The notes beneath the pieces are model-generated. The model saw only the letters and a program-made list of their open reading frames with translations. It made no database searches and had not been told where the DNA came from. From an uncultured Clostridia bacterium (lineage in GTDB: Bacteria > Bacillota > Clostridia > Christensenellales > CAG-138), in contig CAJOKM010000001.1 in the NCBI GenBank assembly GCA_905235205.1, forward strand, positions 1 through 63,721: a DNA stretch of 63,721 nt, read 5' to 3'. Position numbers and translations under genes: made by a program. The first letter of the stretch is position 1. Each line of letters opens with the position of its first letter. Of the stretch, positions 7,029 through 21,243 are shown one piece after another.

Positions 7029-7057
7029 TTGACGGAAACAGCGGGCACGTATACAAT
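7029..7057 (+). promoter_or_regulatory. Sigma70-type promoter of the five-gene TIR operon
   Basis: TTGACG (7029-7034), 17-nt spacer, TACAAT (7052-7057). SD GGAGGA at 7097-7102; ATG at 7108. Confidence 0.6.
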
Positions 7058-7107: not shown

Positions 7108-7917
7108 ATGGTGAGGTTTTCGGAGCTTTTTCCGCCGTATGGGGGCGAACAGCCGTATCTGTATTTTTGCTTTTCAGACGCGGATGCGAGGCGACTGCGG
7201 TCGCTGTTTCGGCGGCTGTATGAACGCGGCTGCCGCATCTGGTACCCCATAGGGCACGGCAGCACCGCTTTAGAGCGGGAACTGCGCGATGCGCGTATGC
7301 GCAAGGCACGGCTTGTGGTCCTGTATCAGACCAAACGTGCGCGTATGGATCAGGCGGTAAAGAGCGCGGTGCTCGTTTGTCAGGAGAAGAGCATCCCGAT
7401 CATCAGCCTCGACGCGGACGACGCGGAAAGCACGCTGTCCATGGGGCTGGATTCACGCGCGGTCCATCTCAAAATGCGCAGCGTCGATGCGACGGAAACC
7501 GCATTGCTCCATGCGAACGGCTTTTCACAGGAGTTGATCGGTCCATCGTTGCCCGTTCGCAAAAAGCCGGTTCTTGCGATTGCAACCGCAATTTTCGCCG
7601 CTGTGTTTCTGATGATCGGCGCAGCGGCTCTGGTTCGGCGCCTTCGTCCGCCCCCGACGGAACAGCCCGGCGATACGGTTTTCTTTTCCGATCCCGTCCT
7701 GACCGCGGCGGTGCGGGACGCGCTTGGCGGCGAACCGATCACCGAAGAATCGCTTGAGACGGTTACGACGCTTCGTTTCGATGCGCTGCCCGAACATACG
7801 GATGAGCTTGCTTTGCTTTCCAATCTTTCCCGCATCAAATTGAATCAGGCGAATGCGGACGACGCCGCTTCGCTTCTCGAACGGTATGAAATCGTGCTGA
7901 CGGGAGGCGGGCTATGA
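7108..7917 (+). CDS. TIR-like domain / single TM / short LRR-cap protein (paralogue 1, degenerate TIR)
   Basis: The N-terminus LFPPYGGEQPYLYFCFSDAD...RIWYP...LVVLYQ parallels the gene-2 TIR core. TM helix at aa 154-176 (PVLAIATAIFAAVFLMIGAAALV). The C-terminus FFSDPVLTAAVRDALGGEPITEESLETVTTL is an internalin-type LRR N-cap. The stop overlaps the next start (ATGA). Confidence 0.8.
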   Translation: MVRFSELFPPYGGEQPYLYFCFSDADARRLRSLFRRLYERGCRIWYPIGHGSTALERELRDARMRKARLVVLYQTKRARMDQAVKSAVLVCQEKSIPIISLDADDAESTLSMGLDSRAVHLKMRSVDATETALLHANGFSQELIGPSLPVRKKPVLAIATAIFAAVFLMIGAAALVRRLRPPPTEQPGDTVFFSDPVLTAAVRDALGGEPITEESLETVTTLRFDALPEHTDELALLSNLSRIKLNQANADDAASLLERYEIVLTGGGL

Positions 7918-9089
7918 GCGTCTACTTTAAGCCGTACGAGGGCAACCGCCCCTACCTTTTCATCAGCTATTCGCACCGCGATTCCGAGGCGGTTCTCAAA
8001 ACCATCACGCTGCTGCACAATCGCAAGCTGCGGCTATGGTACGACGAGGGCATTCCGGCGGGCAGCGATTGGCCGAAAAATATCGAAGAGCATATGCAAA
8101 GCTGCTCGATGGTGCTGTTCTTTGTCTCCGAAGCCGCGTTGGATTCTCCCAACTGTCTGAGCGAGATCGAAGCCGCGCTTGCGCTGAAAAAGCCCGTTCT
8201 GCTGCTGCCGCTTTCGGATACGACGCCAAACGCAAAATGGAACGAGCTGCTTCCGCAATGTACAAGGCTTTCGTCCGGTTCCGATGCTTCTGCGCGTACC
8301 GAAACGGTTCTTTCCTGCAAACGGGTTACGCGTGCGTACTATCGCAGACCGCTTGAAAACCTGCGGTTCGATCGACTGATGCTTGTGTTCGCGCTGTTGC
8401 TGCTTGTTGCCGCCGCGACAGGACTGTATGCGCTGATAACGGGGCGGTTGGACCGCTACCTCCTTCCGCCGTCGACGCCCGTACCGACCGCGCGTCCGAC
8501 ACCGAGCGCTATGCCCGTGCCGACCGAAACGTCCGAACCGACGGCGACGCCGTACGTTCCCGGCATGGAAACGGTCACATTCCCGGATGTAAAGCAGGAA
8601 ACGGCGGTACGCAGCGCGCTGGGCGTTCCCGACGGCGATATAACGCTTTCCGATCTCGGCGGCGTGACGGAGCTGCATTTTTGCGGAACGATGGTGCTCA
8701 ACGATTTATCTGACGTCGCTTTCACAGAAGGCGCCTATGCCGTAAACGGCGCAAAACCGCTGACCGGTCCTGTCAAGGATCTCTCCGTGATCGGGCGGAT
8801 GCCGTATCTTGGGAGGCTTTCGCTGATCATGCAGCCGGTACAGTCGCTTGCCGCGCTCGATCGGCTCATGCTTCTGAACGAATTGAGCCTTGCGGGCTGC
8901 GAAAGCGTGGATCTTTCGACGCTGCCGGTGCTGCCGAGCCTCAATACGCTGCACCTTGAACACAGCAATGTGCGCGATCTTTCCGCGCTGAACACACAGC
9001 CCTCGCTTGAGACCGTGACTGTAAGTATCGATATGCTGCCGCTGACGTTTGCGGACGATGCGGCGTTTGACGTTGTTTTAGTACCGTAA
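7914..9089 (+). CDS. TIR domain / single TM / Pro-Thr linker / LRR protein (paralogue 2, canonical TIR)
   Basis: PYEGNRPYLFISYSHRDS...LWYDEGIPAGSDW...VLFFVSEAALDSPNCLSEIEAAL...PVLLLPL is a textbook bacterial TIR_2 pattern. TM at aa 155-177. Linker PPSTPVPTARPTPSAMPVPTETSEPTATP. Then LRRs (LSDLGGVTELHF, LSVIGRMPYLGRLSL, LAALDRLMLLNELSL...). Confidence 0.9.
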   Translation: MSVYFKPYEGNRPYLFISYSHRDSEAVLKTITLLHNRKLRLWYDEGIPAGSDWPKNIEEHMQSCSMVLFFVSEAALDSPNCLSEIEAALALKKPVLLLPLSDTTPNAKWNELLPQCTRLSSGSDASARTETVLSCKRVTRAYYRRPLENLRFDRLMLVFALLLLVAAATGLYALITGRLDRYLLPPSTPVPTARPTPSAMPVPTETSEPTATPYVPGMETVTFPDVKQETAVRSALGVPDGDITLSDLGGVTELHFCGTMVLNDLSDVAFTEGAYAVNGAKPLTGPVKDLSVIGRMPYLGRLSLIMQPVQSLAALDRLMLLNELSLAGCESVDLSTLPVLPSLNTLHLEHSNVRDLSALNTQPSLETVTVSIDMLPLTFADDAAFDVVLVP

Positions 9090-9119: not shown

Positions 9120-12100
9120 ATGGTCAAGATTACGTACCGAAAAAAGAAGCTGTTCCCGCTGTATGCCAAGGCCGACGAGGAGAAGGTCATGCCGATCCTC
9201 GAAGCGTTGAAGGCAAAGGGATTTCCGATCGCAGACGAAAGTGATACGCCGAACAAGCGCTGCGTGATGCTGCTGTTCACGTCAGAACGGCTGAACGAAA
9301 CCCCTGCGCTTTCGGAAACGTTCTTCGCCAATGACGCGAAGGGGGTGGGGACGGTGCCGGTGAACCTCGACGGATCGATGCCGCCGGAGCTGCTGAAAAA
9401 CGCGCTCTATTCGCGCAACACGATCTTTGCCGAGCGCTACTCCGTAGACGAGCTTGCGGAACGCATAGCGACCGCAAAGCCGTTCGAAGTGTCGAAAAAG
9501 CCGCTTCCGATCATCCTTACGGCTGCCGCTGCCGTTCTCGTGATCGCCGGAGGCATTTTCTTTGCGACAAAGCTGCTGCCCGCAAAGGAAGCGGTCGCAC
9601 CTGAACCGACGGCGGAGCCGATCATTCCCACCGAAGCGGGGCTTACCGCGGCGGACCTTGAAAACGTCTATGAGCTGATCATCATCGGCGATGAATTGCA
9701 CTATTTCACCGGAACCGAAGGGATCGCGGAGAAAAACGGCTGGGCGCGCATCGGCGCCGAGTACTTTGCCAACCGCACCGAGGAGGATCTGCTCGTGCAC
9801 TGGTACAGCAAGGAGGACGGGCACGAGATCGGGCTTGCCGCATGGAACGACCTCGACTTTTTGCGGTACATGAAGAATGTGAAATTCATTACGCTTGTGC
9901 GTGTGGCGGGAGAACTTCCGGATCTTTCGGGTCTTGAAAGGCTCGACAATGTGGAACTGCTGGATTGCGACGTCACGAGCCTCGACGGACTGAAAAACGC
10001 CCGGATCGTCAATTTCGACTATTCCGGCAATACGCTGACGGACTTTTCGCCGCTGTCCGACTGCGAACGGCTTCGCTCTGCGTATCTGACGCTGTTCGAC
10101 CCGATCCCCGCCGATCTGACGTCCTTTGGGCCGCCGAGTTTGACCGAGCTTTACCTCGACACCGACAGCTCGGCAAGGACGATCGACCTTTCCGGCTTGC
10201 AGAACTGTCCCGATCTTTCGACTGTCAGGCTCGACAGCCTGCCTCTGACCGATCTTTCCTGCCTTTCCGCATGCAAAAAGCTGCACGAGCTGGAGCTTGT
10301 GACCATGCCGGAGCTTCGAAGCCTTGACGGATTACAGGATCATCAATATCTGTTTCGGCTCAGAGTCGATGAATGGAGCGAGGACCTGCGCGACTGCTCG
10401 GCGCTTTCGGACAACATAAGCCTCCATTACGTCGATCTGCATAACGGCGCATTAAACGATCTTTCGTGGCTTTCGAACGCAAAGAATCTCGAAGAGCTTG
10501 ATCTTTGGGGCATGAACGGCATGCGAAGCCTGCGTGGTCTCGAGGAGCATACAAGCTTACGGCGCGTGCATATCGAGGGGCTGGAACACCTCACCGACAT
10601 CTCTGCGCTCGAAAGCTGTACGGGACTTTTAGAGATCCATTTGAGCAGCGTCTTCGACCTTTCGGACGTCTCCCCCGTCGTGAAGCTTCCGAATCTCAAA
10701 AGTTTTGAAATCTACGGCTCGCAGCTTCGAGACGTCGGCTTCCTTTCGGATATCGTCAACAAGAACGGCTTCTCCTTCGGTATCGCGGAGGTTGACGACT
10801 GGTCGGGGCTGGAGGCGATTAAAAACTACGACTATCTGAACGTCACCGACCGCACCGGAAGCGCCCTGCCCTATCTCAGGGACGCAAAGATCCACACCTT
10901 CGAACTTTGGTGCCGCAGCGACTACAGCAATTGGAGCCGGGAGCCGCTCGACTGGTCGCAGTTCCCGAACGTCACGCAGAATCTGACGCTGCACGGGGTC
11001 GTGTCTTTGGAAGGCATGCCACAGCTTCCGATCACGGGGCTGTTCATCGACGATTCGCAGACGCTGACGTCGTTGGAGGGCATTCAGAATCTGTCAAATG
11101 CGAAAAACGGCATGCTGTGGCTGAATGTCAAGGGCTGTCCGCGTTTGACGGACTGGTCGGCGCTCGGCGGAATGAAGCTTGCCGAAATCTGCTGTGAAAA
11201 TACGTTCACGCTGCCGGACTTTGCGGCGATCGATACAAGTTCTATCGAGCTGATGGAGCCGGTCGATCTCTTCGACTTGCACTGTTTCGACGGCATGGAT
11301 CCGGATCGCAGCGTCTCCATCGAGCTGTTCCAGACGATGGACGTTACCGATCTAAAGCCGCTGTACGGAATCAAAAACGGCTACCTGCTGAAGGTCCCCG
11401 CGCATCTCGGGGAGCAGGCGCAGCTGCTGGTGGAAAGCGGCAATTTCCGCGATTACGAGATCGTCTATCCGGACGAGTGGTGGGAGCCCGCCGAGTTTCA
11501 TGTGGAGCTCCTGTCGTTCAACGAGCTCGACACGCTGCCGAGCGCGGTGTTAAGCCGTGTGAAGGATCTGAACGCGGTCGGCGATGTGATCTTTTCCTGG
11601 GAGGAGTATCGGCCGGATCAGCAATGGGACGGCGATCAGCCGACCTTTGTGCTGCAGTCGAACGACGGCGACGAAAGCCACGACATCGTGATCGAGCATC
11701 CCGGCACGCTGACCGATTTTTCCAAGCTGTCCAAACTGACCGGACTCGAACAGCTGAACCTGATCTGTCAGTCCTTTACATCGGTCGACGGCATTCAGAG
11801 TTTGCAGGAGCTTCGGGATCTTGAACTCTCCTTCACGCCGACGCTGACCGACGCGTCTCCTGCGTTCACGCTGCAGCAGCTCGAAGACCTGCACCTGCAG
11901 TATACCGGCGTGACAAGCATACAGGGCGTTCAGAATCTGCAGAATCTGCGCTGGATGGATCTGAACGGATTGAAGCTCGACGATCTCACCCCGCTCGGCG
12001 GCATACCGGAGGACTGCGGTTTCACGTTCGACTTCCCGCTGATGACGGTCGATGAATTCCTTGCGCTGCCGGACAGCGTGCTGTCTCGCATCCGCGAGAT

Positions 12101-12956
12101 CGGATTTTTCGGAAAATACGTGACAAAGGACCCGTGGGGCGATCTGTGGCTGGAGGAGGACTGGGACGGCGGCGACAGGCCGGAGCTGTATCTGCACGAC
12201 AATGCAACCGGCGAACGCTTCCCGATCGGGGAGGGACCGATTGCCGATCTTGGGCTTTTGACCCGCTTGCCGAATCTCGAAACGCTGTATTTGTACGGAC
12301 AGCCGATCGAATCGCTCGGCGGCATCGAAGCAGCCGGAAATCTCCGTCGGTTCGATTCGCGCTGGACAAATCTTTCCGATCTTTCGCCGCTGTATGATCT
12401 CCCGCAGATACAGGTCGTCTGTATCGAGAACACGGAAACGGTCACCTCGATCGAGGGCGTACAGAAGCTTCCGCATCTGACCGATCTGAACATCGGCGGC
12501 GACAACCTGACGGACATAAGCGCGATCGCAGAGATTAACTATTCGTTCTGCATGACGCCGGACGGGGACGGCAATGTGCCGTACTTCGTCCTCGGCGTGG
12601 ACAACCTGCAGGGGAAAATCCCGGATGAGCAGTATGCGGTTCTGTCCGCCGTGCCGGAGTATCAGAGCCTGAACGTGTTCAACACGGACTGCGCGCTGTG
12701 GATGGATGCTGTGAAGGATGTGAAAATCCATGAGATCCACGCGGGCAACTGCCGCTTTACCAACGAATCGTTCCGGCAGTTTATCGAACAGCACCCCGAG
12801 CTCGAATACATCAAGGTGTCGTGGACGCCGGAACTCACCGATATTTCGCCGCTTTTGACGCTTCCGAATCTGCGCGCGGCGTGCGTGTCGAACAATATGC
12901 AGCCCGCGATCCGGAGCCTGGGCGACGGATACGGGTTTGATCTCGAGATCGAATAA
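9120..12956 (+). CDS. Divergent TIR-like domain / single TM / very large LRR ectodomain protein (paralogue 3, 1278 aa)
   Basis: SD GAAGGAGG. The N-terminal ~120 aa (KKLFPLYAKADEEKVMPILEALKAKGFPI...VMLLFTSERLNETPALSETFF) is a diverged copy of the TIR core. TM at aa 129-150. More than 1,100 aa of 22-residue internalin-type LRRs follow (LTDFSPLSDCERL, LTDLSCLSACKKLHELEL, LNDLSWLSNAKNLEELDL...). Confidence 0.85.
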   Translation: MVKITYRKKKLFPLYAKADEEKVMPILEALKAKGFPIADESDTPNKRCVMLLFTSERLNETPALSETFFANDAKGVGTVPVNLDGSMPPELLKNALYSRNTIFAERYSVDELAERIATAKPFEVSKKPLPIILTAAAAVLVIAGGIFFATKLLPAKEAVAPEPTAEPIIPTEAGLTAADLENVYELIIIGDELHYFTGTEGIAEKNGWARIGAEYFANRTEEDLLVHWYSKEDGHEIGLAAWNDLDFLRYMKNVKFITLVRVAGELPDLSGLERLDNVELLDCDVTSLDGLKNARIVNFDYSGNTLTDFSPLSDCERLRSAYLTLFDPIPADLTSFGPPSLTELYLDTDSSARTIDLSGLQNCPDLSTVRLDSLPLTDLSCLSACKKLHELELVTMPELRSLDGLQDHQYLFRLRVDEWSEDLRDCSALSDNISLHYVDLHNGALNDLSWLSNAKNLEELDLWGMNGMRSLRGLEEHTSLRRVHIEGLEHLTDISALESCTGLLEIHLSSVFDLSDVSPVVKLPNLKSFEIYGSQLRDVGFLSDIVNKNGFSFGIAEVDDWSGLEAIKNYDYLNVTDRTGSALPYLRDAKIHTFELWCRSDYSNWSREPLDWSQFPNVTQNLTLHGVVSLEGMPQLPITGLFIDDSQTLTSLEGIQNLSNAKNGMLWLNVKGCPRLTDWSALGGMKLAEICCENTFTLPDFAAIDTSSIELMEPVDLFDLHCFDGMDPDRSVSIELFQTMDVTDLKPLYGIKNGYLLKVPAHLGEQAQLLVESGNFRDYEIVYPDEWWEPAEFHVELLSFNELDTLPSAVLSRVKDLNAVGDVIFSWEEYRPDQQWDGDQPTFVLQSNDGDESHDIVIEHPGTLTDFSKLSKLTGLEQLNLICQSFTSVDGIQSLQELRDLELSFTPTLTDASPAFTLQQLEDLHLQYTGVTSIQGVQNLQNLRWMDLNGLKLDDLTPLGGIPEDCGFTFDFPLMTVDEFLALPDSVLSRIREIGFFGKYVTKDPWGDLWLEEDWDGGDRPELYLHDNATGERFPIGEGPIADLGLLTRLPNLETLYLYGQPIESLGGIEAAGNLRRFDSRWTNLSDLSPLYDLPQIQVVCIENTETVTSIEGVQKLPHLTDLNIGGDNLTDISAIAEINYSFCMTPDGDGNVPYFVLGVDNLQGKIPDEQYAVLSAVPEYQSLNVFNTDCALWMDAVKDVKIHEIHAGNCRFTNESFRQFIEQHPELEYIKVSWTPELTDISPLLTLPNLRAACVSNNMQPAIRSLGDGYGFDLEIE

Positions 12957-12968
12957 GGAGGAAGAACC

Positions 12969-14999
12969 ATGGCATACACCGCTTTGGAGCAGATGCGAAC
13001 GGTCAACAGAGAGCGCTTCGGCGCGGATGTCGGACCGTTTGAACCGGCGCTGTACGGCGCGGGCAGAACGGGCAGCGATTTGAAATCCGCCGCGCTGCGG
13101 TTTTTGCACGAGCGCTGCGAGGGACTGCGCTTCTCGCCCGAAAAGGCGCAAAAGGAGAAACAGACCGGACAATATCTCGGCACGAGTTTCCGACCGAATC
13201 AGATTCCGTACAACATGCAGATGGATCTCGACCGACTTTGTCTTGAACGCGAACTGGAGAGCTTTATCGACTCCGGCGTCGCCGAGGACGCGTACACGGT
13301 CTATTACAGCTTTTTGAAGATGTTCCTCGGCGCCTACGGACGCTCGAGCAAGATGATCGAGCTTTTATCGGAGTTTGAATCGAACGCCAGCTCCCTTCTG
13401 ATGAAGCATCGCGATCACTATTCCCACTCGGTTTATGTGTTCGCGCTGGGGCTCGCGATCTACGAAACGAACGAGCGGTTCCGCACGACGTTTCAAAGAT
13501 TCTACGGCTTCACGTCCGATCGGGACGAGCATTCCGCCGCGGCGTTCTTCCTGGAATACTGGGGGCTGACCTCGCTGTTCCACGACATCGGCTACCCGTT
13601 TGAGATCCCGTTTGAACAGGTGCTCGCCTACTTCGAGGTCGACCGCAAAAAACGCGGCAACGGCAGCCTGTACCTTGCCTATCGCGACCTTGACTGCCTG
13701 TCCGGTCTGGACGAAATAACAAGCGCGCATCTTGCAGCGCTGTTCGGGAGACCGTTCGACACCGTGGAGGAGCTGCTCGCTTACGGAATCGGGAAACGGC
13801 TCGGCGCAGCATACGATGTGACGGAAGAATACCTGCTCGATACGATCCGCCGGAAACCCGTCGAACCGAACCGATTCGGATACTTCATGGATCACGCGTA
13901 TTTTTCCGCGACGCGGCTCTGTCAGGAGCTTTGCGAGGTGCTCGGCGAACAGGCGCTGACCGAAGCGCACGTCGACGCGCTGACCGCGATCATGCTGCAC
14001 AACAGCCTTTATAAGTTCGCGATCGCGTTTTATAAGGATCCGGACAGGCGAAAGCCGCCGCTCAAAGCCGAGCTGCATCCGCTTGCGTACCTTTTGATGC
14101 TGTGCGACGAGCTGCAATGCTGGGACCGTACCGCGTACGGCAGGAATTCTCGCACCGAGCTGCATCCGATGGACGCCGAGTTCGATTTCGGCAGGGGCAT
14201 GATCCACGCGCTCTACTGTTTCGACGCCGAGGAATCCGAAAAGATCGGCGAGTACGAAGCGCGCTACCGCGCGTGGGAACAGGGCGGCAAGCAGGATGCG
14301 CCCCCGCGCTTGAAGGCGTACAGCGACATGGCGGAAACCGAACAGCGCTTCCGCACGGACATCGAAAAGATCGTCGATCTAAGTGACTATCCGCTGTTTA
14401 TCACGACGTTTATGCGCACCGCGGACCGCAAGAGCAAGCATACCTATCTGTCCGGCAGCAGCTTTCTGCACATGTACGATTTTGCCGTGGCGATCAACGG
14501 ACGCTATCAGTATGAGGGCAGGGAGCAGGAAGTTTCCGTGGAGCAGCTCGAACGCGATTTTGATACGATGTCGCTCGAGTATCAGCTGAGCAACATCAAC
14601 CAGGTCAAGAGCTTCTCGAAGTACCTGAACGCGATCGGCTGCTTCTACACGGACCGCCCGGTCGATTTTGAAATGCTGCGCGCGTTTACCGCGGAACAGA
14701 CAGCCGTGTTCGCGCCGATGGAGCACGCCCGCTGGGTGCGGTCACATCGCGCGATGGACTGGACTGCCGGAAATCTCTATGAAACGGTTGCAGCGGACGG
14801 AGAAACGAACCGCTTTGTGCTGCGCGAGCAGATGCGGCAGCACAAGCTGTGCATGAACGGCGATTTCGGAGAGCTCGAGATCGCGCGGCACTATCTCAAC
14901 CTGTCCGAGGCGGATCAAGGCAAGGACTGGAAACCGTTCAATTCCATGTTGAAGCTGATCCGCAAGTTCGACGGACTGCGAATCTACAAACTCGGTTGA
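12969..14999 (+). CDS. HD-domain phosphohydrolase (SAMHD1/dGTPase-style motifs) with C-terminal RyR-type repeats
   Basis: SD AAGGAGG, 12 nt after the previous stop. HD motifs RDHYSHSVYV, LFHDIGYPFE, MLHNS, LCDELQCWDR. C-terminus MEHARWVRSHRAMDWTAGN...RQHKLCM...LSEADQGKDW...MLKLIRKFDG compares with the RyR repeat pattern (HE.W..GWTYG..K..HPCLV..LPE.EK...LKTLLALG). A degenerate first repeat is FAVAINGRY...LSNINQVKSFSKYLNAIGC. Confidence 0.85.
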   Translation: MAYTALEQMRTVNRERFGADVGPFEPALYGAGRTGSDLKSAALRFLHERCEGLRFSPEKAQKEKQTGQYLGTSFRPNQIPYNMQMDLDRLCLERELESFIDSGVAEDAYTVYYSFLKMFLGAYGRSSKMIELLSEFESNASSLLMKHRDHYSHSVYVFALGLAIYETNERFRTTFQRFYGFTSDRDEHSAAAFFLEYWGLTSLFHDIGYPFEIPFEQVLAYFEVDRKKRGNGSLYLAYRDLDCLSGLDEITSAHLAALFGRPFDTVEELLAYGIGKRLGAAYDVTEEYLLDTIRRKPVEPNRFGYFMDHAYFSATRLCQELCEVLGEQALTEAHVDALTAIMLHNSLYKFAIAFYKDPDRRKPPLKAELHPLAYLLMLCDELQCWDRTAYGRNSRTELHPMDAEFDFGRGMIHALYCFDAEESEKIGEYEARYRAWEQGGKQDAPPRLKAYSDMAETEQRFRTDIEKIVDLSDYPLFITTFMRTADRKSKHTYLSGSSFLHMYDFAVAINGRYQYEGREQEVSVEQLERDFDTMSLEYQLSNINQVKSFSKYLNAIGCFYTDRPVDFEMLRAFTAEQTAVFAPMEHARWVRSHRAMDWTAGNLYETVAADGETNRFVLREQMRQHKLCMNGDFGELEIARHYLNLSEADQGKDWKPFNSMLKLIRKFDGLRIYKLG

Positions 15000-15012: not shown

Positions 15013-16602
15013 ATGGCAAAGCATGATACGATCCCGATCGTCGTCGGCGTGACCGGGCATCGGGATCTTCGCCCCGAGGATCGGAACGTTTTATCCGATG
15101 CCGTCAAACAGGAACTGACCGCGCTGCAGAAAAAGTGTCCTCATTCCGAGATTGTCTTGATGAGCAGTCTTGCCGCGGGCGCGGATCAGCTTTGTGCCGA
15201 GGCTGCGCGGGATTGTTCCGTTCCGCTGATTGCCGTTTTGCCGATGGAGCAGCCGGAATATGAACAGGATTTTTCGGGGGAGGAGCTTGTCGCGTTCCGC
15301 TCCATTTTGAGCGCTGCCGCGGATTGCTTTGTCGCACCTCGCACGGAGCAGGCACCGACCGCGCCGGATCGGGACTTTGCGTACCGGCAGGCGGGCATCT
15401 ATGTCGCTTCGCACGCGCACGTACTGCTTGCGCTTTGGGACGGAACCGAATCGCCCGCTTCCGGCTGCGGAACTGCGGCAACAGTGCATTTTGCGTTGGA
15501 CGGCGCATATATACCGGAGCATTCCATCCCGCTCGGCGGCGGCTGTCCCGTGCTGCAGATCCAAACGCCGCGCAACGGCACCGATGCAGTCAACGCCGGA
15601 GACGTGCGTTTTCTCGGCGATCGCGCCGCATTTGAGGAGATTTTGTCGCGAACCGACGAGTTCAACCGCCTTGCCGCAAAAACGTCCTCGTCCGGATCGG
15701 AGCTTTTGCCCGCGGACCGGGAACCGGACGCGCAGCTCGACCGGTTGGAAACGCTGTATGAAAAGGCGGACGCATTGAGCGTTCGCTTTGCAAAACAGTA
15801 CCGGAGGATTCTTGCCGCGCTCGCGGTCGTCAGCACGATCATCACGATCGCATTCCTTCTGTATGATGAAGCCGAACTGCATTGGATGATTCTCGTTTGC
15901 GGTTTTATGCTGCTGTCCGCGTGGCTGATTCAGTACAGCGGAAAACGGATCGCCTGCCATAGACGGTATCTGGAATACCGGACGCTTGCGGAAAGCATGC
16001 GCGTGCAGGCATTTCTGCGGTATGCAGGGAGCAGACTGCCCGTTTCCGGGATCCTGCCGTGGTCGGCGCGTTCGGAGACCGGATGGGTCGCCGCAGCGCT
16101 GAAGACCGGCGCCGTCAGCACGCCGTATCCCATGCACAGCATCCGTGCGCCGTGGGTGGAACAACAGAGGGATTATCACGTCCGCGCCGCGCAAAAGACG
16201 AAGCGCGCGCTGTTCTTCAGCGAGCGCATCGTCAAAGCCGCCCTTTGGATCAGTGTCGCTTTGTATCTGGGCGTTCTGGTATTCGAACTCGTTTGGGGCG
16301 ACCTGCTGCCGTTCGGCACGCATATTGCCGGTGCCGACCGCTATCGAACGCTGTCCAAACTGCTTCTCGGCGGCGTATCCGCGGCAACGCTGTTCATTTC
16401 CAATTATTTCGGGCGGCTGTCTCTCTCCCGCGCCGTTTCGGATCACAACAAAATGAAGCGGTTCTACAGCGCCGTGCTGAATCGACTCGATCGGTACGGT
16501 CAAACGGACGAACTGCTGCGGCAGCTTGCAAGGGAGGAACTGATCGAAAACGGCAGCTGGTGCTCCTACCGGCGCGACAATTCCGCCGAGTTCAGTTTGT
16601 GA
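15013..16602 (+). CDS. SLOG-like (DprA/LOG/YpsA-type Rossmann) domain fused to four TM helices (two SLATT/DUF4231-like 2-TM modules)
   Basis: SD AGGAGAG, 13 nt after the previous stop. N-domain: IPIVVGVTGHRDL, IVLMSSLAAGADQLCAEAA, PLIAVLP, VLLALWDGTESPASGCGTAATV. C-half: ILAALAVVSTIITIAFLLY / WMILVCGFMLLSAWLIQY followed by HRRYLEYRTLAESMRVQAFL. Then AALWISVALYLGVLVFELVW / LLLGGVSAATLFISNYF. Domain names from motif memory. Confidence 0.85.
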   Translation: MAKHDTIPIVVGVTGHRDLRPEDRNVLSDAVKQELTALQKKCPHSEIVLMSSLAAGADQLCAEAARDCSVPLIAVLPMEQPEYEQDFSGEELVAFRSILSAAADCFVAPRTEQAPTAPDRDFAYRQAGIYVASHAHVLLALWDGTESPASGCGTAATVHFALDGAYIPEHSIPLGGGCPVLQIQTPRNGTDAVNAGDVRFLGDRAAFEEILSRTDEFNRLAAKTSSSGSELLPADREPDAQLDRLETLYEKADALSVRFAKQYRRILAALAVVSTIITIAFLLYDEAELHWMILVCGFMLLSAWLIQYSGKRIACHRRYLEYRTLAESMRVQAFLRYAGSRLPVSGILPWSARSETGWVAAALKTGAVSTPYPMHSIRAPWVEQQRDYHVRAAQKTKRALFFSERIVKAALWISVALYLGVLVFELVWGDLLPFGTHIAGADRYRTLSKLLLGGVSAATLFISNYFGRLSLSRAVSDHNKMKRFYSAVLNRLDRYGQTDELLRQLAREELIENGSWCSYRRDNSAEFSL

Positions 16603-16903: not shown

Positions 16904-19900
16904 TTACGGCTGAAGCGGAAGCGAATCGATCAGCGCAATGACATAGCGCAGGATTGCCGCCGCATCGCCTGCAGTGACCTGTGTGTCACAGTCAACATCT
17001 GCGTTGAGCATGCCGAGCGGCGTGAGCGTCGAGAGCCCGACAATCGAGCGCAGGACCATCGCCGCGTCCGCGGAAGTGATCTTTCCGTCGCAGTTCGCAT
17101 CGCCGTACACGATCGGGATCATCGGAAGCACGACGTCCTTCGTCTGGGCCGTAAACGGCTCCTTCGTGAATACGGCGGTGTAGCGTCCGAGACCGTCCGC
17201 GCCGGGGGAGGGCTCGGTCACGACTTCATAGGTTACCGTACCCGTTTCTGTGACGATATGGCTTTCGTCATTTCTGCAGACGGCGGATGCTTCAACCGTA
17301 TAGCCCGTATCGGTCTCTGCCCATACATAGACGGGTTCGCCGTAATCGTGTCCCGTTGCGCCGAGCGTTTCGGCGACCGTATTTGTAAAGGCCTTTTCGT
17401 GGAAGACGACCGTCGCCGTATGTTTGCGCTCGCCTTCTGTCGTGCAGCCCGGATGAACCGTGATCTCGGTTTCGATCGCGTCGCCCGCGGCTGCAACATC
17501 GATCTTGAACGTTGCGTCATCCTTTGCGGTGAACGTCGCAGTTGCGGACGAATAATCTTCCGCCCACTGCCAGGTCGGCTCATTGTACAGCCGCGCAGAC
17601 TGCGTGTACGTCGCAGTGTAAACGGCGTTTCCGACGGCAGGACTCAACTGAGGGGTCCAACCGCTGAACGTGTAGAGATATGCTTCCGTCGGCGCCTTAA
17701 CCGGAGTTTCTCCGGTGTATACGGGCGTCTCTCCATGCTCCGTTTCCACGCGCAGCAGTTCGGTGCCGTCTTCATTTTGGAAGATGATCACGTAGACAGC
17801 CTTTTTAAACGTTGCGGAAACGGTGACATTGCCTTTCGGCATAACGAACGAAGCAGTGTTGTCATCGTTCAGTGTGACCTCAACCGTGTTCGATCCCTGT
17901 GTGACCGTGACCGTGTCGAGCACATAGCCGGTTTCCGGCTCGAAGGTCAGTGTGACGGTCTCGTTTTCTTCGGCGTAGGGCTTATCCGCCGAGACCGTGC
18001 CGTTCCCGGTTCCGGCGGAAACGGTGACCTGATACATCCGCGCTACCTTGATGTAGTTTGCAAACCATTCGCTTCCGGTGCCCTTGTGCGGGCGGAAGTA
18101 GACGCGATAGCGGCCGCTTGCGGTGATCTCGCCGTGTTCGCCGTAGTTGTTGCCCATGCCGGTCGGGTACCAGGTCGTTGTTGCCGAGCCGTTGGCAGAA
18201 TACACAACCTTGAACTGGCTGGACGTTGTCAGGTTGATTTCATGCTTGTATTCCTCGGGATCGACGCCGATCTTCGTCATCTTATATGCGGAGTTGACGC
18301 TCCAGCCGGTCATGCTGCCGACCAAATAATATCCGGACGCTGCCAGCGGAGAATTCGGATCCACATAGAGACAGTTCTTGAACCAGTCGTCGGGTCCGTC
18401 GTAGCCCGGACGGAAATAGACGCGGTAAACGCCGCCTTCGGTGATCTCGCCGTTCTCGCCGTAGTTCTCCGACGGATCGGGGTACCAGACCGTTTTCTCC
18501 ACGCCGTCATCGGAGTACACGACCTTGAACTGGTCGTTCGTCATCAGTTCAACGTCGAGATAGTATTCGTTCGTGCTGGCGAACTCGTTCTTCGTCAGCA
18601 TGTATTCCGGCTTGAGGCTCCAGCCGTTCATGGTGCCGACGAGGTAGTATCCTTCCGCCTCGATGGGTGTCGCCTCGATCAGTTCAATGTAAATGCAGTT
18701 TTTATACCAGTCGTCCCCGCCGGAATAATCCGGGCGGAAATAGACGTGATAGGTGCCGCGTACGGTAATCTGATCGTCTACGCCGAAGTTGTCCGCCGGA
18801 TCGGGGAACCACTTTGTTTTGGTCTCGCCGTCCGCAGAGTATACGACCTTGAACTCGTCGCCCGTCTTCAGTTCGAGGTCGATGACGTATTCGTTCGCAG
18901 CGGTTCCCTCGTTCTCGGACAGCTTGTAGGCCGGATTGATATTCCAGTCGCTCATCGTACCGACCAGATAATATCCCTCGCCGCCGACAGCGGTCTTTTC
19001 ATACCAGCTCCAGGTGCCGCTTCCGTTCCAGTCGTCTTCCGTGACCGTGAAACAGTTGGTGCCGTTATCCGGATACAGATCGGCCGTCTGGTTCCACCTG
19101 GCGTCCCAGTTGTTCTCGGCGGCGTCCGGATCCATTCGGCAGAAAATCACCTTATTCCATTCGCCCTCGGGAAGTTCCGCTTCATAGACGCCGTCCCCGT
19201 CCTCGTCGGTCATGCCGACCCATTGCTCGTCGAGGCCGGTGTTATAGACGTACATTGCAAAACGGGCGCCGTCCTGTTTCCAGGTTTCGCTCGGTATCAG
19301 ATACAGAGGGGAAACATTGAGACTGTCCGTCGGAGCGTTTTCCGGCGTGTAGATGACGGCAACGCCGCTTGCGCCGACGGTGCCGCTGATGACGCCCTGC
19401 GATACGGTGAACGTGTTCTTCGTGACCTGATCCGTGTAGACGCCGTCCTTCATCCGGTATACAGGCAAACTGACCGCGCCCGCGCCGTTGAGATTTGAAA
19501 TCACGATTCCGTTCGTGCCGCGCTCAATGTATGCAACGTTGCCCGAGGAGGAAAGGTATTCGCTGGTTCCGTCAAAGTGATTCTTGAACTTGTTGATCTC
19601 CGCGACCGAAGGATCCTTCCACGTTTCATCGGTACTCGCCATACCCATCGTCTCGTTCGGTCTTGCCAGGAACAGCGAGGTGGAATCCGCTCTCGCGCCG
19701 ACGATCGCCCATGTCCTGACGATCACTGCGTCGGAGATGCCGGACGAATTATTGTGCATATAGGTGTCGTGCGATTCCGCCCAGAGCACACAGTCCCGCG
19801 GGATCGCTTTTTTCTGATACTGGAAGCTTGCAAGTCCGGAGGCGTTTTTGCTGTTCGCGTTCGAGCGCGCGCTGTCGCCGGTGTCGTTGTCGGTCACGGC

Positions 19901-20749
19901 CATCAGGTCGGTGTAGTTCGAGATCTTCGTACCCGCGCCGCTGAGAACTTCGCCGTAGAAAAACAGCGGATCGCCGCCTTTTTGCGCATTGTACGCGCTG
20001 GCACCGTCAAGTACGTACGGCCAGAAATCGCTGGCGAAGCTTGCGTCGTCTGTAGGAAGCTCGATGTGCTTCGCCGCATCGAAGCGGAAGCCGTCGACGC
20101 CGCAGTCGACGCATTCCTTGAGCAGGTTCAGAACCTGCTGCTGAATATATGCGTTGCCGGTGTTCAGATCGGGCATACCCATATGATACTGCGTCATATT
20201 GAACCGGCTGCTGTCGTTGATGCTCTGCGTGTAAGGATGATAGTATTCCTCGACCTTGAGATCCTCGTCGACCGCTTCGCTCAAATGTGCAAAGGTGCCG
20301 CCCTCGGTATCGTTCGCGAGATGGTTGGCAACGATGTCGACAATGACCTTGATGCCGTATTGATCCGCTTCGGCGCAGAGCGCGGCCAATTCCGCTTTGG
20401 TGCCGAGCCACGACGTGGCGTTCTGCTCTGCGTCAGTCGGCGCAATGCGCAGACCGAGCGGCTGATACATTTTCCACCACTGACCGTCGAGATCCGTCCA
20501 CTCCGGAGAGTAGTCCTTCGGCTGCTGTGCGGGAGAGGTCTGTACGGCGGTATAGCCCGCAGCGGCGATCTCCGGCAAAGCGGCTTTGATCGAACTGTAG
20601 GACCAGTTGAAACAGTGCAGGATCGCACTGCCCTGAATAGTATCCTGCGCATAAGTCGTTGGGGTCGTTTCTGCAGACACGGCGATAGGAAGCAACGCCA
20701 GAAGCATACATAACGCCAGTAAAACGGAAACGCATTTTTTGAATCGCAT
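16904..20749 (-). CDS. Secreted GH13 alpha-amylase with tandem binding-module repeats, Ig-like/Listeria-Bacteroides repeats and a C-terminal type-I dockerin
   Basis: Signal peptide MRFKKCVSVLLALCMLLALLPIAVSA. GH13 motifs DIVANH, GFRFDAAKH, FYGEVL, WAESHD. Three GYYLVG.M..W modules. Dockerin GDANCDGKITSADAAMVLR...NADVDCDTQVTAGDAAAILR. Confidence 0.92.
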   Translation of the reverse strand: MRFKKCVSVLLALCMLLALLPIAVSAETTPTTYAQDTIQGSAILHCFNWSYSSIKAALPEIAAAGYTAVQTSPAQQPKDYSPEWTDLDGQWWKMYQPLGLRIAPTDAEQNATSWLGTKAELAALCAEADQYGIKVIVDIVANHLANDTEGGTFAHLSEAVDEDLKVEEYYHPYTQSINDSSRFNMTQYHMGMPDLNTGNAYIQQQVLNLLKECVDCGVDGFRFDAAKHIELPTDDASFASDFWPYVLDGASAYNAQKGGDPLFFYGEVLSGAGTKISNYTDLMAVTDNDTGDSARSNANSKNASGLASFQYQKKAIPRDCVLWAESHDTYMHNNSSGISDAVIVRTWAIVGARADSTSLFLARPNETMGMASTDETWKDPSVAEINKFKNHFDGTSEYLSSSGNVAYIERGTNGIVISNLNGAGAVSLPVYRMKDGVYTDQVTKNTFTVSQGVISGTVGASGVAVIYTPENAPTDSLNVSPLYLIPSETWKQDGARFAMYVYNTGLDEQWVGMTDEDGDGVYEAELPEGEWNKVIFCRMDPDAAENNWDARWNQTADLYPDNGTNCFTVTEDDWNGSGTWSWYEKTAVGGEGYYLVGTMSDWNINPAYKLSENEGTAANEYVIDLELKTGDEFKVVYSADGETKTKWFPDPADNFGVDDQITVRGTYHVYFRPDYSGGDDWYKNCIYIELIEATPIEAEGYYLVGTMNGWSLKPEYMLTKNEFASTNEYYLDVELMTNDQFKVVYSDDGVEKTVWYPDPSENYGENGEITEGGVYRVYFRPGYDGPDDWFKNCLYVDPNSPLAASGYYLVGSMTGWSVNSAYKMTKIGVDPEEYKHEINLTTSSQFKVVYSANGSATTTWYPTGMGNNYGEHGEITASGRYRVYFRPHKGTGSEWFANYIKVARMYQVTVSAGTGNGTVSADKPYAEENETVTLTFEPETGYVLDTVTVTQGSNTVEVTLNDDNTASFVMPKGNVTVSATFKKAVYVIIFQNEDGTELLRVETEHGETPVYTGETPVKAPTEAYLYTFSGWTPQLSPAVGNAVYTATYTQSARLYNEPTWQWAEDYSSATATFTAKDDATFKIDVAAAGDAIETEITVHPGCTTEGERKHTATVVFHEKAFTNTVAETLGATGHDYGEPVYVWAETDTGYTVEASAVCRNDESHIVTETGTVTYEVVTEPSPGADGLGRYTAVFTKEPFTAQTKDVVLPMIPIVYGDANCDGKITSADAAMVLRSIVGLSTLTPLGMLNADVDCDTQVTAGDAAAILRYVIALIDSLPLQP
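18040..18985 (-). repeat. Three tandem ~105-110-codon modules inside the amylase gene (putative starch-binding beta-sandwich repeats)
   Basis: Each unit starts (E/S)GYYLVG(T/S)M..W. The first two end DDW(Y/F)KNC(I/L)Y(I/V) and the third ends SEWFANYIKV. Boundaries are approximate. Confidence 0.6.
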
Positions 20750-21147: not shown

Positions 21148-21164
21148 GATAAGTCAACATTGAT

Positions 21165-21190
21165 TGGTTTGATGGATGTTGATAAACCGA
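21165..21190 (-). repeat. Second, degenerate anti-repeat-like copy upstream (5') of the functional anti-repeat
   Basis: 21170-21187 (TGATGGATGTTGATAAAC) is identical to repeat positions 13-30. The flanks are diverged and it lacks the part complementary to the repeat 5' end. Confidence 0.8.
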
Positions 21191-21212
21191 CATCATCCCT
21201 GAGCACAGAATC

Positions 21213-21241
21213 ACTATACCACAGAAACAGTAAGGAGTCAA
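21213..21241 (-). promoter_or_regulatory. Strong sigma70-type promoter for tracrRNA, overlapping the cas9 SD
   Basis: Minus strand: TTGACT (21241-21236), 17-nt spacer, TATAGT (21218-21213), with an upstream TG (extended -10 TGGTATAGT). The -35 overlaps the cas9 SD AAGGAG (21232-21237). Confidence 0.65.
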
Positions 21242-21243
21242 GT

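Follow-up and report, generated by a model that had tools for sequence, protein, structure and literature searches.

Does a bacterial protein that combines an HD-like putative hydrolase domain with a ryanodine-receptor (RyR) domain receive the nucleotide signals of TIR proteins, or does it remove them? We addressed this question for a 676-aa ORF that runs from ATG to TGA in a window of 63,721 nucleotides, the whole stretch of DNA analysed here, from an uncultured Clostridia bacterium. A previous sequence-only reading had described it as a SAMHD1/dGTPase-style HD phosphohydrolase fused to RyR repeats, and a check of the translation showed that the ORF and all the peptides quoted for it are real and occur in the proposed order (Table 1). 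The product is a soluble multidomain protein that has no transmembrane (TM) segment, and its full-length AF2 model reaches pLDDT 81 and pTM 0.87. The stop codon of the gene located 5' overlaps the ribosome-binding site, so the two genes are tightly coupled and belong to one operon.

Table 1. Positions of the 676-aa protein gene, its regions and residues, and its operon partners in the window
Feature	Position (nt)	Strand	Residues (aa)	Basis or remark
First operon gene, 269 aa	7108..7917	+		degenerate TIR-like N-terminal domain (Pfam TIR_2 E=0.028)
TIR - TM - LRR protein, 391 aa	7914..9089	+		Pfam TIR_2 4.6e-17; PADLOC ThsB-type matches
1278-aa protein	9120..12956	+		short N-terminal cytoplasmic domain, TM helix aa 131-149, long internalin-type LRR ectodomain
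Ribosome-binding site AAGGAGG	12955..12961	+		7 nt between its end and the ATG
676-aa ORF	12969..14999	+	1-676	ATG to TGA
N-terminal region	12969..13208	+	1-80	conserved among close relatives
All-alpha HD-like putative metal-dependent hydrolase domain	13209..14168	+	81-400
Near-invariant H153	13425-13427	+	153	in RDHYSHSVYV (aa 148-157)
Near-invariant H205-D206	13581-13586	+	205-206	in LFHDIGYPFE (aa 203-212)
Near-invariant D308-H309	13890-13895	+	308-309
Near-invariant H344	13998-14000	+	344	in MLHNS (aa 342-346)
Near-invariant D380	14106-14108	+	380	in LCDELQCWDR (aa 378-387)
Middle alpha/beta region	14169..14456	+	401-496	secondary structure of AF2 model
Helical region preceding RyR domain	14457..14690	+	497-574
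RyR domain (Pfam PF02026 / R12-type)	14691..14996	+	575-676	profile searches, hhalign
RyDEP-equivalent H586	14724-14726	+	586	in MEHARW (aa 584-589)
RyDEP-equivalent W589	14733-14735	+	589	in MEHARW (aa 584-589)
Peptide DWTAG			597-601
RyDEP-equivalent H625	14841-14843	+	625	in RQHKLCM (aa 623-629)
RyDEP-equivalent D653	14925-14927	+	653	in LSEADQGKD (aa 645-653)
Peptide MLKLIRKFDG			660-669
SLOG (YAcAr) - SLATT/DUF4231 membrane protein, 529 aa	15013..16602	+		Pfam, NCBIfam, TM helices

The C-terminal RyR domain

Profile searches confirmed the proposed RyR assignment of the C-terminus. Scans of the protein itself against Pfam, PADLOC, NCBIfam and PHROGs returned neither an HD nor a RyR match, the single sequence staying below the Pfam RyR threshold. 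Pfam RyR matches 35 of 62 relatives (best 1.2e-12); when ten relatives were scanned one by one, four exceeded the gathering score, and a relative that is 61% identical to the protein (P0221) scores 30.1 bits against a gathering score of 27.4. In the PDB sequence search, a diverse family alignment (A2) retrieved RyR proteins only: repeats of RyR1/2/3 (E from 1e-13 to 1.1e-20), the bacterial entry 3NRT (9e-11) and the structure of the phage protein RyDEP, 35TM (0.0038). The same search with the single protein or with a shallow alignment (A1) gave no match.

An hhalign comparison of this domain with RyDEP (95% probability, P=3.8e-8) places H75, W78, H100 and D117 of the phage protein opposite H586, W589, H625 and D653. 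These four residues are invariant among 34 close relatives and are kept in 71-76 of the 87-91 aligned members of a diverse set of 92 (~80-85%). In the GW.YG loop, Asp (D597) occupies the place of the usual Gly, a substitution that might change ligand binding. RyDEP and six of eight assayed phage homologues bind 2'/3'cADPR, and RyDEP cleaves it to ADPR (PMC13232231, a May 2026 preprint), so the sequence-only reading is now out of date where it calls the role of this repeat in bacteria unknown. Cleavage was seen for only one of the nine assayed proteins (RyDEP and the eight homologues) despite conservation of the residues (PMC13232231), which means that catalysis cannot be predicted from the His/Asp dyad. 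In the 676-aa protein, the catalytic pair H75/D117 of RyDEP is retained as H586/D653. By analogy, the ligand of the domain would be a TIR product. The connection between TIR and RyR, put forward earlier as pure speculation, has thus become the best-supported part of that proposal, given that phage RyR proteins bind or cleave TIR-made 2'/3'cADPR (PMC13232231) and that the four residues are kept.

Only one recognisable RyR copy is present, and the plural "repeats" is not supported. In this domain family the two-fold symmetric unit would be a tandem pair of repeats or a homodimer. In hhalign, the supposed degenerate first copy (aa 497-574) reaches a probability of 1.4% with the real copy and of 0.2% with RyDEP, and the extended alignment over it is of low confidence. 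This helical region stays together with the RyR domain in deletion variants, and it may be either a strongly degenerate repeat or the N-terminal helices of a RyR-type fold. Natural deletion variants of the family also retain the N-terminal aa 1-80. Pfam, PADLOC and NCBIfam scans of the protein gave no family match for aa 401-496.

The HD-like domain

The HD-like domain contains a set of extremely conserved His and Asp residues. Among 92 relatives, with identity to the protein as low as 28%, D308 is found in 86 of 86 aligned sequences, H309 in 85 of 85 and H344 in 86 of 86, followed by D206 (88/89), H205 (85/89), H153 (84/89) and D380 (86/90); Q383 and R387 are likewise near-invariant. As judged from these alignments, conservation of the H/D motifs is far above chance. 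The order H...HD...D is present, with H153, H205-D206 and D380 collinear with H69, H117-D118 and D268 of E. coli Dgt, the metal ligands of that enzyme. Weak matches to Pfam HD (PF01966) occur in 10 of the 62 relatives at E<=1 (best 0.0037) and to NCBIfam HDIG (TIGR00277) in five (best 0.064); the only other recurrent families apart from RyR and SLOG were Hydantoinase_A (three relatives) and V-ATPase_V1_A (two).

Searches for an HD fold were negative. Neither PF01966 nor PF13286 (HD_assoc) appeared in the Pfam scan of the protein, no HD protein was retrieved from the PDB by sequence (single protein, A1 or A2), and a regular expression for canonical HD proteins found none across the collected loci. 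The domain model is good (pLDDT 89.5), and Foldseek found no HD-fold protein among its 50 listed PDB matches, and none at E<=0.001; the matches were unrelated all-alpha proteins. The full-length model gave nothing significant in the PDB or BFVD, its weak matches being the C-domain of PPX (E=0.086) and PDEs (E 0.3-1). This negative result lowers the HD claim, although Foldseek is weak for all-alpha folds. Thus, of the HD domain proposed earlier, the near-invariant motifs and the weak HD and HDIG matches in relatives stand: the assignment appears to hold at the motif level only, and the domain would be a very atypical one. That it is a hydrolase is predicted solely from the conserved H and D residues, because the search for an HD fold was negative. 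With D308-H309 and H344 also invariant, the metal site appears to be of another kind, perhaps a multinuclear one. A trinuclear zinc site of the P1-nuclease/PLC type was considered and dropped, as no match supported it.

Membership in the Dgt/SAMHD1 family was rejected. True Dgt and SAMHD1-like proteins recognise each other in hhalign at 100% (P=1.7e-42), whereas the 676-aa protein scores 9-62% against these sets, driven by one 10-residue block. Alignments shuffled in blocks of 10 columns reached the real score in 19 of 150 and 7 of 60 trials, which shows that the similarity reflects this one motif block. The 62% was obtained with a SAMHD1-like reference set collected via the signature HDxG[NH]xPFxH, the same motif as the one scored, and, given the shuffle controls, is not counted as proof of homology; the E. 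coli Dgt homologues that served as the other HD reference are 84-99% identical to each other, which is too similar, and a search for related loci yielded a single viral Dgt. The peptide HDIGYPF does resemble HDIGNPPF and HDLGHGPF, so the label "SAMHD1/dGTPase-style" is apt for the motif and fails for the family. Nothing specifically indicates dNTP depletion.

Association with TIR genes

The gene is the fourth of five in the operon, with intergenic gaps of -4, 30, 12 and 13 nt in gene order. In the 269-aa protein, a single TM helix and a short C-terminal stretch come after the TIR-like domain; this gene type accompanies the family in 20 of 83 loci. The 391-aa TIR protein has a TM helix at aa 157-175 and is the likely signal producer because it keeps the catalytic-Glu-type motif SPNCLSE (aa 78-84). 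The 529-aa SLOG-SLATT protein encoded downstream (Pfam YAcAr 3.6e-5, DUF4231 5.4e-5; NCBIfam SLATT_3 2e-4) is, by its domains, a second candidate signal-gated effector. The remaining partners found in operons of the family were considered as hidden effectors and rejected, being kinases, small LRR proteins and spurious ORFs. Upstream of the window operon lie DUF4147/MOFRL, cyclophilin-like and FMN-reductase ORFs, and an amylase gene lies downstream. Cas9 is encoded 4.5 kb downstream, which offers a defence context.

The family comprises 1,210 clusters at 50% identity from 463 species-level genomes, and no account of it turned up in the literature searched. Among the 50 complete loci (flanked by 5 kb or more on each side), a TIR-sensor gene adjoins the family member in 41, as the earlier grouping of the protein with TIR genes had implied. 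The TIR partners are fused to TM-LRR, WD40 or TPR regions, and Pfam TIR_2 was found in all three kinds; the TIR-WD40 partners were recognised by clustering and Pfam and are missed by jackhmmer started from the window TIR. A SLATT gene is present in 22 of the complete loci, and TIR without detectable SLATT in 23, some of which may have been clipped by the 8-kb flank (e.g. L028, L040, L048). In such loci, among them clean units of just two genes, TIR-WD40 and family member (L019, L023-L025), the protein is often the sole effector candidate. Gene order is altered in L003 and L027, where the family member precedes the TIR genes.

Distant relatives are HD-RyR-SLOG fusions with an adjoining or following TIR gene, which also speaks for the TIR connection. 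The operon of one distant relative encodes a NUDIX protein, a type of protein that processes ADPR. In relatives of ~900 aa, the HD-like core persists with a swapped RyR end and outside the TIR context, which fits the usual pattern of an effector core with exchangeable sensors. Natural variants that lack the HD core retain the RyR module, so this module functions in its own right. Ser/Thr kinases recur in operons of the family. The family is patchily distributed, with Cas9 and integrases near some loci.

Candidate roles and comparison with known systems

At chances only just short of even, we favour the reading that this soluble protein receives the signal in a Thoeris-like TIR operon, where its RyR domain would do the sensing and its HD-like hydrolase would deliver the output. 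It may act on the host side as a receptor of TIR signals or as their effector. Membrane-anchored TIR proteins with outward LRR domains (WD40 or TPR sensors in relatives) would sense the trigger, and a catalytically competent TIR would convert NAD+ to a cyclic-ADP-ribose-type nucleotide. The RyR domain would capture this nucleotide in the H586/W589/H625/D653 pocket, and binding would activate the HD-like domain, a metal-dependent hydrolase on the N-terminal side; phage replication would stop as this domain destroys its substrate, an essential nucleotide or nucleic acid. In the window operon, the SLOG-SLATT neighbour would be a second, parallel effector under the same signal. This scheme starts from what the analysis shows: the identity of the RyR domain and the retention of its four ligand residues, an H/D-rich site that is conserved to an extreme degree, and the conserved linkage to TIR genes. 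We infer that ligand binding by the RyR domain activates the protein and does not serve signal degradation; the kind of substrate assigned to the HD-like domain and a role in phage defence are likewise presumed.

Several points weigh against the effector reading. The retained RyDEP catalytic dyad would suit signal cleavage equally well, and with SLOG-SLATT already a plausible effector, the protein could be an accessory; the negative searches for an HD fold, the loci that may have been clipped, D597 in the GW.YG loop and the lack of a match to PADLOC and NCBIfam defence models also count against it. Effector and signal degrader, the two options of the sequence-only reading, remain the leading hypotheses. 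As a degrader, which we consider unlikely although it is the main rival, the protein would be a host off-switch or timer, in which a RyDEP-like RyR glycosidase opens the ribose-ribose bond of a cADPR isomer and the HD-like phosphohydrolase splits ADPR or another phosphoester of the signal; signalling would end and the cell would be spared its own SLOG-SLATT effector, much as with the ring nucleases of type III CRISPR. The invariance of H586/D653 among close relatives fits this, as do the conversion of 2'/3'cADPR into ADPR by RyDEP (PMC13232231), the conventional SLOG-SLATT effector encoded directly after the protein in the window and the SLATT genes of other loci, the NUDIX protein of the distant relative and the RyR-module variants without the HD core. 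Against it, a producer and a degrader alone would be pointless in the 23 complete loci where TIR and the family member were found with no separate effector detected, conserved residues did not make eight of the nine assayed phage proteins cleave (PMC13232231), and the two-gene units of HD-RyR-SLOG and TIR resemble effector plus sensor.

The other explanations carry less weight. A non-immune transmembrane signalling system, with LRRs outside, TIR inside and a nucleotide second messenger that governs physiology through this protein as receptor or phosphodiesterase, is improbable: its three TIR-type partners, each with one TM helix and extracytoplasmic LRRs, the recurrent Ser/Thr kinases and the housekeeping or metabolic type of the flanking genes would suit it, but partners of the SLATT type typically act as cell-suicide effectors, the sensor part changes between LRR, WD40 and TPR as in immune receptors, and the patchy distribution of the family and the Cas9 and integrase genes near some loci also argue against it. 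The dNTP triphosphohydrolase of the SAMHD1/dGTPase family proposed previously, which would deplete dNTPs under RyR regulation, we regard as still less probable; the motif register shared with Dgt, the HDIGYPF peptide and the hhalign values of up to 62% are outweighed by a score that block shuffles reproduce, by the missing PF01966/PF13286, PDB sequence and Foldseek matches, and by the extra invariant residues, which suggest a different metal site. Least probable of all appears to be a signal-maturation enzyme that turns the primary TIR product into the SLOG-SLATT ligand. In window-type operons its gene keeps a fixed place, after the TIR genes and before SLOG-SLATT, and one protein with two potential nucleotide-processing activities would be suited to the task; however, many loci have no SLATT, known Thoeris TIRs need no helper enzymes for signal synthesis (10.64898/2025.12.03.692087), and the order of genes is changed in L003 and L027.

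A bolder form of the favoured receptor reading, which we put forward tentatively, is that host RyR domains are the physiological receptors of the cADPR-type messenger made by TIR proteins, a complete bacterial pathway that would lead from a Toll-like-receptor-type sensor (LRR outside, one TM helix, TIR inside) through the signal to a RyR effector. This would be a prokaryotic counterpart, and possibly the evolutionary source, of animal cADPR-RyR signalling, with either an unrecognised, highly derived HD-like domain or a new metal-enzyme fold as its output. RyR domains that bind or cleave Thoeris cADPR signals have so far been seen only in phage counter-defence proteins (PMC13232231, May 2026). 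The intact ligand residues in a large host family inside TIR operons suggest that bacteria themselves may read or reset TIR signals by RyR domains. If so, the family would represent a new receptor/effector class in Thoeris-like immunity and a simple soluble test system for the recognition of cADPR isomers by RyR domains. Whether animal ryanodine receptors recognise cADPR is a long-disputed question. As the TIR-TM-LRR/WD40 partners are membrane-anchored, the cell surface may be where infection, or some other cue, is detected. The HD-like region would be a conserved enzyme domain that escapes current profile and fold libraries.

The operon resembles Thoeris in having a catalytic-Glu-type TIR gene next to an effector-type partner with a putative nucleotide-binding module; in the window, several TIR-like genes are combined with SLOG-SLATT. 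Type I Thoeris pairs ThsA (SIR2-SLOG) with ThsB, type III has multiple TIRs with SLOG, and type VII has TIR with SLATT and uses canonical cADPR as signal. The HD-RyR-SLOG plus TIR units mirror the ThsA/ThsB pair, the HD-like part taking the place of the effector. Unlike in Thoeris, the TIR proteins of these operons are membrane-anchored, and their LRR or WD40 domains are extracytoplasmic. With the Thoeris models of PADLOC and NCBIfam, matches to the TIR protein were only weak and none was obtained for the 676-aa protein, and no RyR or HD effector was found in the main text or the covered portions of the supplements of a survey predicting 29 Thoeris types. With HD phosphohydrolases (PF01966, Dgt/SAMHD1) the protein has the H...HD...D pattern and an all-alpha domain in common, but it differs in the extra invariant D308-H309, H344, Q383 and R387 and lacks the HD_assoc domain. 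It belongs to the same Pfam family as Repeat12 (R12) of animal RyRs, in which the ligand-pocket residues are conserved (PMC13232231); R12 is a tandem pair in a Ca2+ channel of ~5,000 aa, whereas here one recognisable copy is part of a soluble enzyme-like protein. The closest known systems also include the phage RyR-domain sponges and RyDEP (Mycobacterium phage DyoEdafos gp78, PDB 35TM), which has the PF02026 domain in common with the 676-aa protein and shares with it the H, W, H and D that contact or cleave 2'/3'cADPR in RyDEP (PMC13232231); both are tied to TIR/Thoeris signalling. However, RyDEP is a stand-alone phage anti-defence protein of 138 aa, whereas the protein described here is encoded by the host within TIR operons, joins its RyR domain to a large HD-like domain and further regions, and by analogy is presumably a receptor or regulator on the side of defence.

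Organization of the operon and its surroundings

The RyR-domain protein is the product of the fourth gene in an operon of five tightly packed, co-directional genes separated by gaps of -4, 30, 12 and 13 nt, and its start codon is preceded, at a distance of 7 nt, by the ribosome-binding site AAGGAGG. The open reading frame and all of the peptides quoted in an earlier, sequence-only reading are present in the translation (aa 148-157, 203-212, 342-346, 378-387, 584-589, 597-601, 623-629, 645-653 and 660-669), and no transmembrane (TM) segment was found in the protein. Each of the three proteins encoded upstream combines an N-terminal cytoplasmic TIR or TIR-like domain (~130-155 aa) with one TM helix and C-terminal leucine-rich repeats (LRRs), an arrangement of the Toll-like-receptor type, found here in a Bacillota MAG. 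This layout suggests that the predicted sensing would take place at the cell surface. Downstream of the operon, the dockerin-bearing amylase fits a host among rumen Clostridia that bear cellulosomes, and the proximity of a Cas9-like gene to the TIR operon lends the region a modest defence-island flavour.

Features of the operon and of its flanks in the window
Feature	Position	Strand	Remarks
Sigma-70-like site	7029-7057		Before the first operon gene
269-aa degenerate TIR-like + TM protein	7108-7917		TIR_2 E=0.028; TM helix aa 155-173
391-aa TIR-TM-LRR protein	7914-9089		TIR_2 E=4.6e-17; TM helix aa 157-175; catalytic-Glu-type motif SPNCLSE, kept in this one only of the three upstream proteins
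1278-aa TM-LRR protein	9120-12956		TM helix aa 131-149
676-aa RyR-domain protein	12969-14999	+	ATG to TGA
Codon of aa 597	14757-14759		Asp
SLOG (YAcAr) + SLATT/DUF4231 membrane protein	15013-16602		Directly downstream of the RyR-domain gene
1281-aa secreted alpha-amylase	16904-20749	-	InlB B-repeat-like and dockerin domains; convergent with the operon
Cas9-like protein	21160-24384	+	HNH and RuvC domains; just past the amylase gene
305-aa ORF	24345-25262	+	Overlaps the Cas9-like gene

The RyR domain

The Pfam RyR model does not match the window protein itself even at E≤1. PF02026 matches 35 of 62 diverse relatives (best E=1.2e-12), and P0177, P0182, P0201 and P0221, the last a fragment 61% identical to window aa 502-678, exceed its gathering score of 27.4 bits. 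A profile built from 92 relatives matched 59 distinct PDB sequences, every one of them an RyR repeat protein (RyR1 chimera, 1.1e-20; RyR2, 9e-19; bacterial 3NRT, 9e-11; 35TM, 0.0038), and all of these matches fall in a single profile region corresponding to window aa ~580-676. On this evidence from the relatives and the PDB, the RyR assignment made in the sequence-only reading holds for one copy. The degenerate first copy proposed in that reading (aa ~497-574) found no support: in hhalign this segment scored 1.4% when compared with the true copy and 0.2% when compared with the phage protein RyDEP. Alignments of this segment with the RyR copy were found only in the register of an L-S-x-E-x-K half-motif, and a beta-strand ends both halves, so that it may still represent a very degenerate RyR repeat.

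RyDEP (Mycobacteriophage DyoEdafos gp78, PDB 35TM) is a PF02026 protein that binds and cleaves TIR-made 2'/3'cADPR; its catalytic dyad consists of H75 and D117, with W78 stacking on the adenine and H100 holding the phosphates. Of eight further homologues from phages, six are sponges that bind the signals without cleaving them (PMC13232231, preprint of 29 May 2026). With the gp78 sequence taken from MN234187, hhalign aligned RyDEP to the C-terminal region of the family with a probability of 95% (P=3.8e-8), matching H75 to H586, W78 to W589, H100 to H625 and D117 to D653. All four are invariant among 34 close relatives and are retained in most of the diverse ones (H586 in 73/91, W589 in 76/91, H625 in 74/87 and D653 in 71/88). 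At aa 597, which is the Gly of the GW.YG loop in 71 of 84 relatives, the window protein has Asp; this substitution may account for its score below the Pfam RyR threshold and could affect ligand binding.

The HD-like N-terminal region

In the all-alpha region at the N-terminus (aa ~81-400), several His and Asp residues are exceptionally conserved, namely H153 (84/89), H205 (85/89), D206 (88/89), D308 (86/86), H309 (85/85), H344 (86/86) and D380 (86/90), together with Q383 (86/87) and R387 (87/87). Such conservation argues strongly for a predicted active site, and the additional putative ligands D308-H309 and H344 suggest that it may be bi- or multinuclear. Scans of the protein against Pfam, PADLOC, NCBIfam and PHROGs gave no match, and no HD proteins were among the PDB sequence matches. 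Foldseek, which the sequence-only reading had proposed as a check, produced no significant HD-fold match with either structural model: the matches of the full-length model (pLDDT 81, pTM 0.87), to the C-domain of exopolyphosphatase, which is HD-like (E=0.086), and to PDEs (E 0.3-1), were all non-significant, and the model of the HD region only (pLDDT 89.5, pTM 0.90) had no HD-fold protein among the 50 matches listed. Among 62 relatives, weak matches to PF01966 recur in 10 at E≤1 (best 0.0037) and to NCBIfam HDIG in 5 (best 0.064); nearly all other families, RyR and SLOG aside, appear once, the exceptions being Hydantoinase_A (3) and V-ATPase_V1_A (2).

Comparison with E. coli Dgt by hhalign yielded 8.9% (P=0.0037), with H153 collinear with H69, H205/D206 with H117/D118 and D380 with D268, which we take to be the Dgt metal ligands. 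With viral Dgt-like and SAMHD1-like sets of greater diversity the probability was 26% and 62% (P=7.5e-5), values to be read in the light of a reference set that was fished with the very motif that drives the score. Single-column shuffles of the reference never reached the real score (14.9 ± 2.6 vs 42.3); shuffles in 10-column blocks did so in 19/150 and 7/60 trials, so the signal is essentially the 'hhHDhGxPF' block. In a positive control, true Dgt and SAMHD1-like proteins matched each other at 100% (P=1.7e-42), as opposed to the 9-62% that the RyR-domain protein owes to one motif block, and membership of the Dgt/SAMHD1 family was therefore rejected. Of the earlier observations, the ORF, the near-invariant HD motifs and one RyR domain stand, while neither a second RyR repeat nor an HD fold was confirmed. 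The region is probably a very divergent HD-superfamily hydrolase, although it may be a convergent new fold.

Relatives, gene neighbourhoods and proposed role

More than 2,000 close homologues exist, all unannotated and without a precomputed Pfam domain. An exhaustive profile search placed the family in 1,210 clusters at 50% identity (E≤1e-3), 268 of them at E≤1e-30. Scanning the GTDB species representatives with a pattern located it in 463 genomes; the best 80 of these come exclusively from MAGs of rumen or gut Bacillota (Clostridia, Lachnospiraceae, Oscillospiraceae, Erysipelotrichaceae). We examined 83 loci, restricting neighbour counts to the 50 whose flanks extend for 5 kb or more on each side. 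A TIR-sensor gene adjoins the RyR-domain gene in 41 of these and a SLATT gene lies nearby in 22; both are present in 18, TIR without detectable SLATT in 23 (in some of these the flank limit may hide a SLATT gene), SLATT without TIR in 4 and neither in 5. Fusion partners of the TIR domain are TM-LRR (29 loci), TM-WD40 (11) and TPR (12), and clean two-gene units of TIR-WD40 and the RyR-domain gene occur at loci L019 and L023-L025. Some loci have a short SLATT partner (~320 aa) without SLOG. Ser/Thr kinases that carry TM domains or repeats (TPR, beta-propeller-like) also recur in these operons (kinase cluster L003, L027, L029, L053 and L068; also L062, L066 and L083).

Distant relatives (29-35% identity) are HD-RyR-SLOG fusions. 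One of these, P0182, is directly followed by a TIR_2 gene; another, P0226 (L206 1-9292), adjoins a 130-aa ThsB-type TIR (ThsB_TIR); its long operon also encodes a 684-aa NUDIX protein along with several proteins lacking annotation, and looks like a larger system centred on nucleotides. In relatives of ~900-1070 aa the HD-like core is present and the RyR end is missing. The neighbours of one of them, P0178 (915 aa, L210 7001-9748), are genes for an AAA ATPase, a Metallophos protein and an HSP90-like HATPase with no TIR nearby, so the HD-like module also occurs in non-TIR settings. Conversely, relatives of ~360-400 aa (P0179, P0193, P0206, P0251 and P0257) are internal deletions that keep the N-terminus and the RyR module but have lost the HD-like catalytic core, HD being changed to ED or DD; these may be sponge-like or regulatory versions.

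In Thoeris, a TIR sensor-producer is paired with a partner bearing a signal-binding module (10.64898/2025.12.03.692087), and by analogy the layout of the present operon is Thoeris-like. Beyond the observed domain identities, residue conservation and gene linkage, we infer the ligand of the protein, its activation, its substrate and its role in defence: the RyR domain would bind a TIR-made cADPR-type signal, this binding would switch on the HD-like hydrolase as the effector, and SLOG-SLATT, where present, would act as a second effector. We hold this scheme with middling confidence. The TIR-RyR link, called speculation in the sequence-only reading, has become the best-supported inference, while the dGTPase/SAMHD1 attribution is reduced to a motif resemblance. 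In the main rival scheme the protein would be an off-switch of the host, its RyR part acting as a glycosidase and its HD part as a phosphohydrolase that jointly degrade the signal. Retention of the His/Asp dyad and the separate effector encoded in the window favour this scheme, but many loci have only TIR and the RyR-domain gene, and we consider it rather unlikely. Lesser rivals are that the protein is a true dNTPase or a signal-maturation enzyme, or that the operon is a non-immune transmembrane signalling pathway.

No RyR, PF02026 or PF01966 effector was found in the main text and supplements (one in part) of a systematic Thoeris survey, in which 'SLOG and 4TM' effectors do appear; the RyDEP paper covers only virus-encoded proteins (PMC13232231), and the searched literature contained nothing linking RyR with SLATT, SLOG or SMODS. 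We therefore see here a putative Thoeris-like system in which a host protein would serve as receptor/effector through its RyR domain and carries a predicted enzyme domain not recognised before. The SLOG-SLATT protein of the operon resembles both ThsH, the SLATT effector of type VII, and the putative 'SLOG and 4TM' effectors of Thoeris. The closest known counterparts are Thoeris types I, III and VII, whose logic matches the one proposed here, and the phage RyR proteins. Compared with phage RyDEP and the RyR-domain sponges, the window protein has the same domain and residues but would stand on the opposite side of the conflict.
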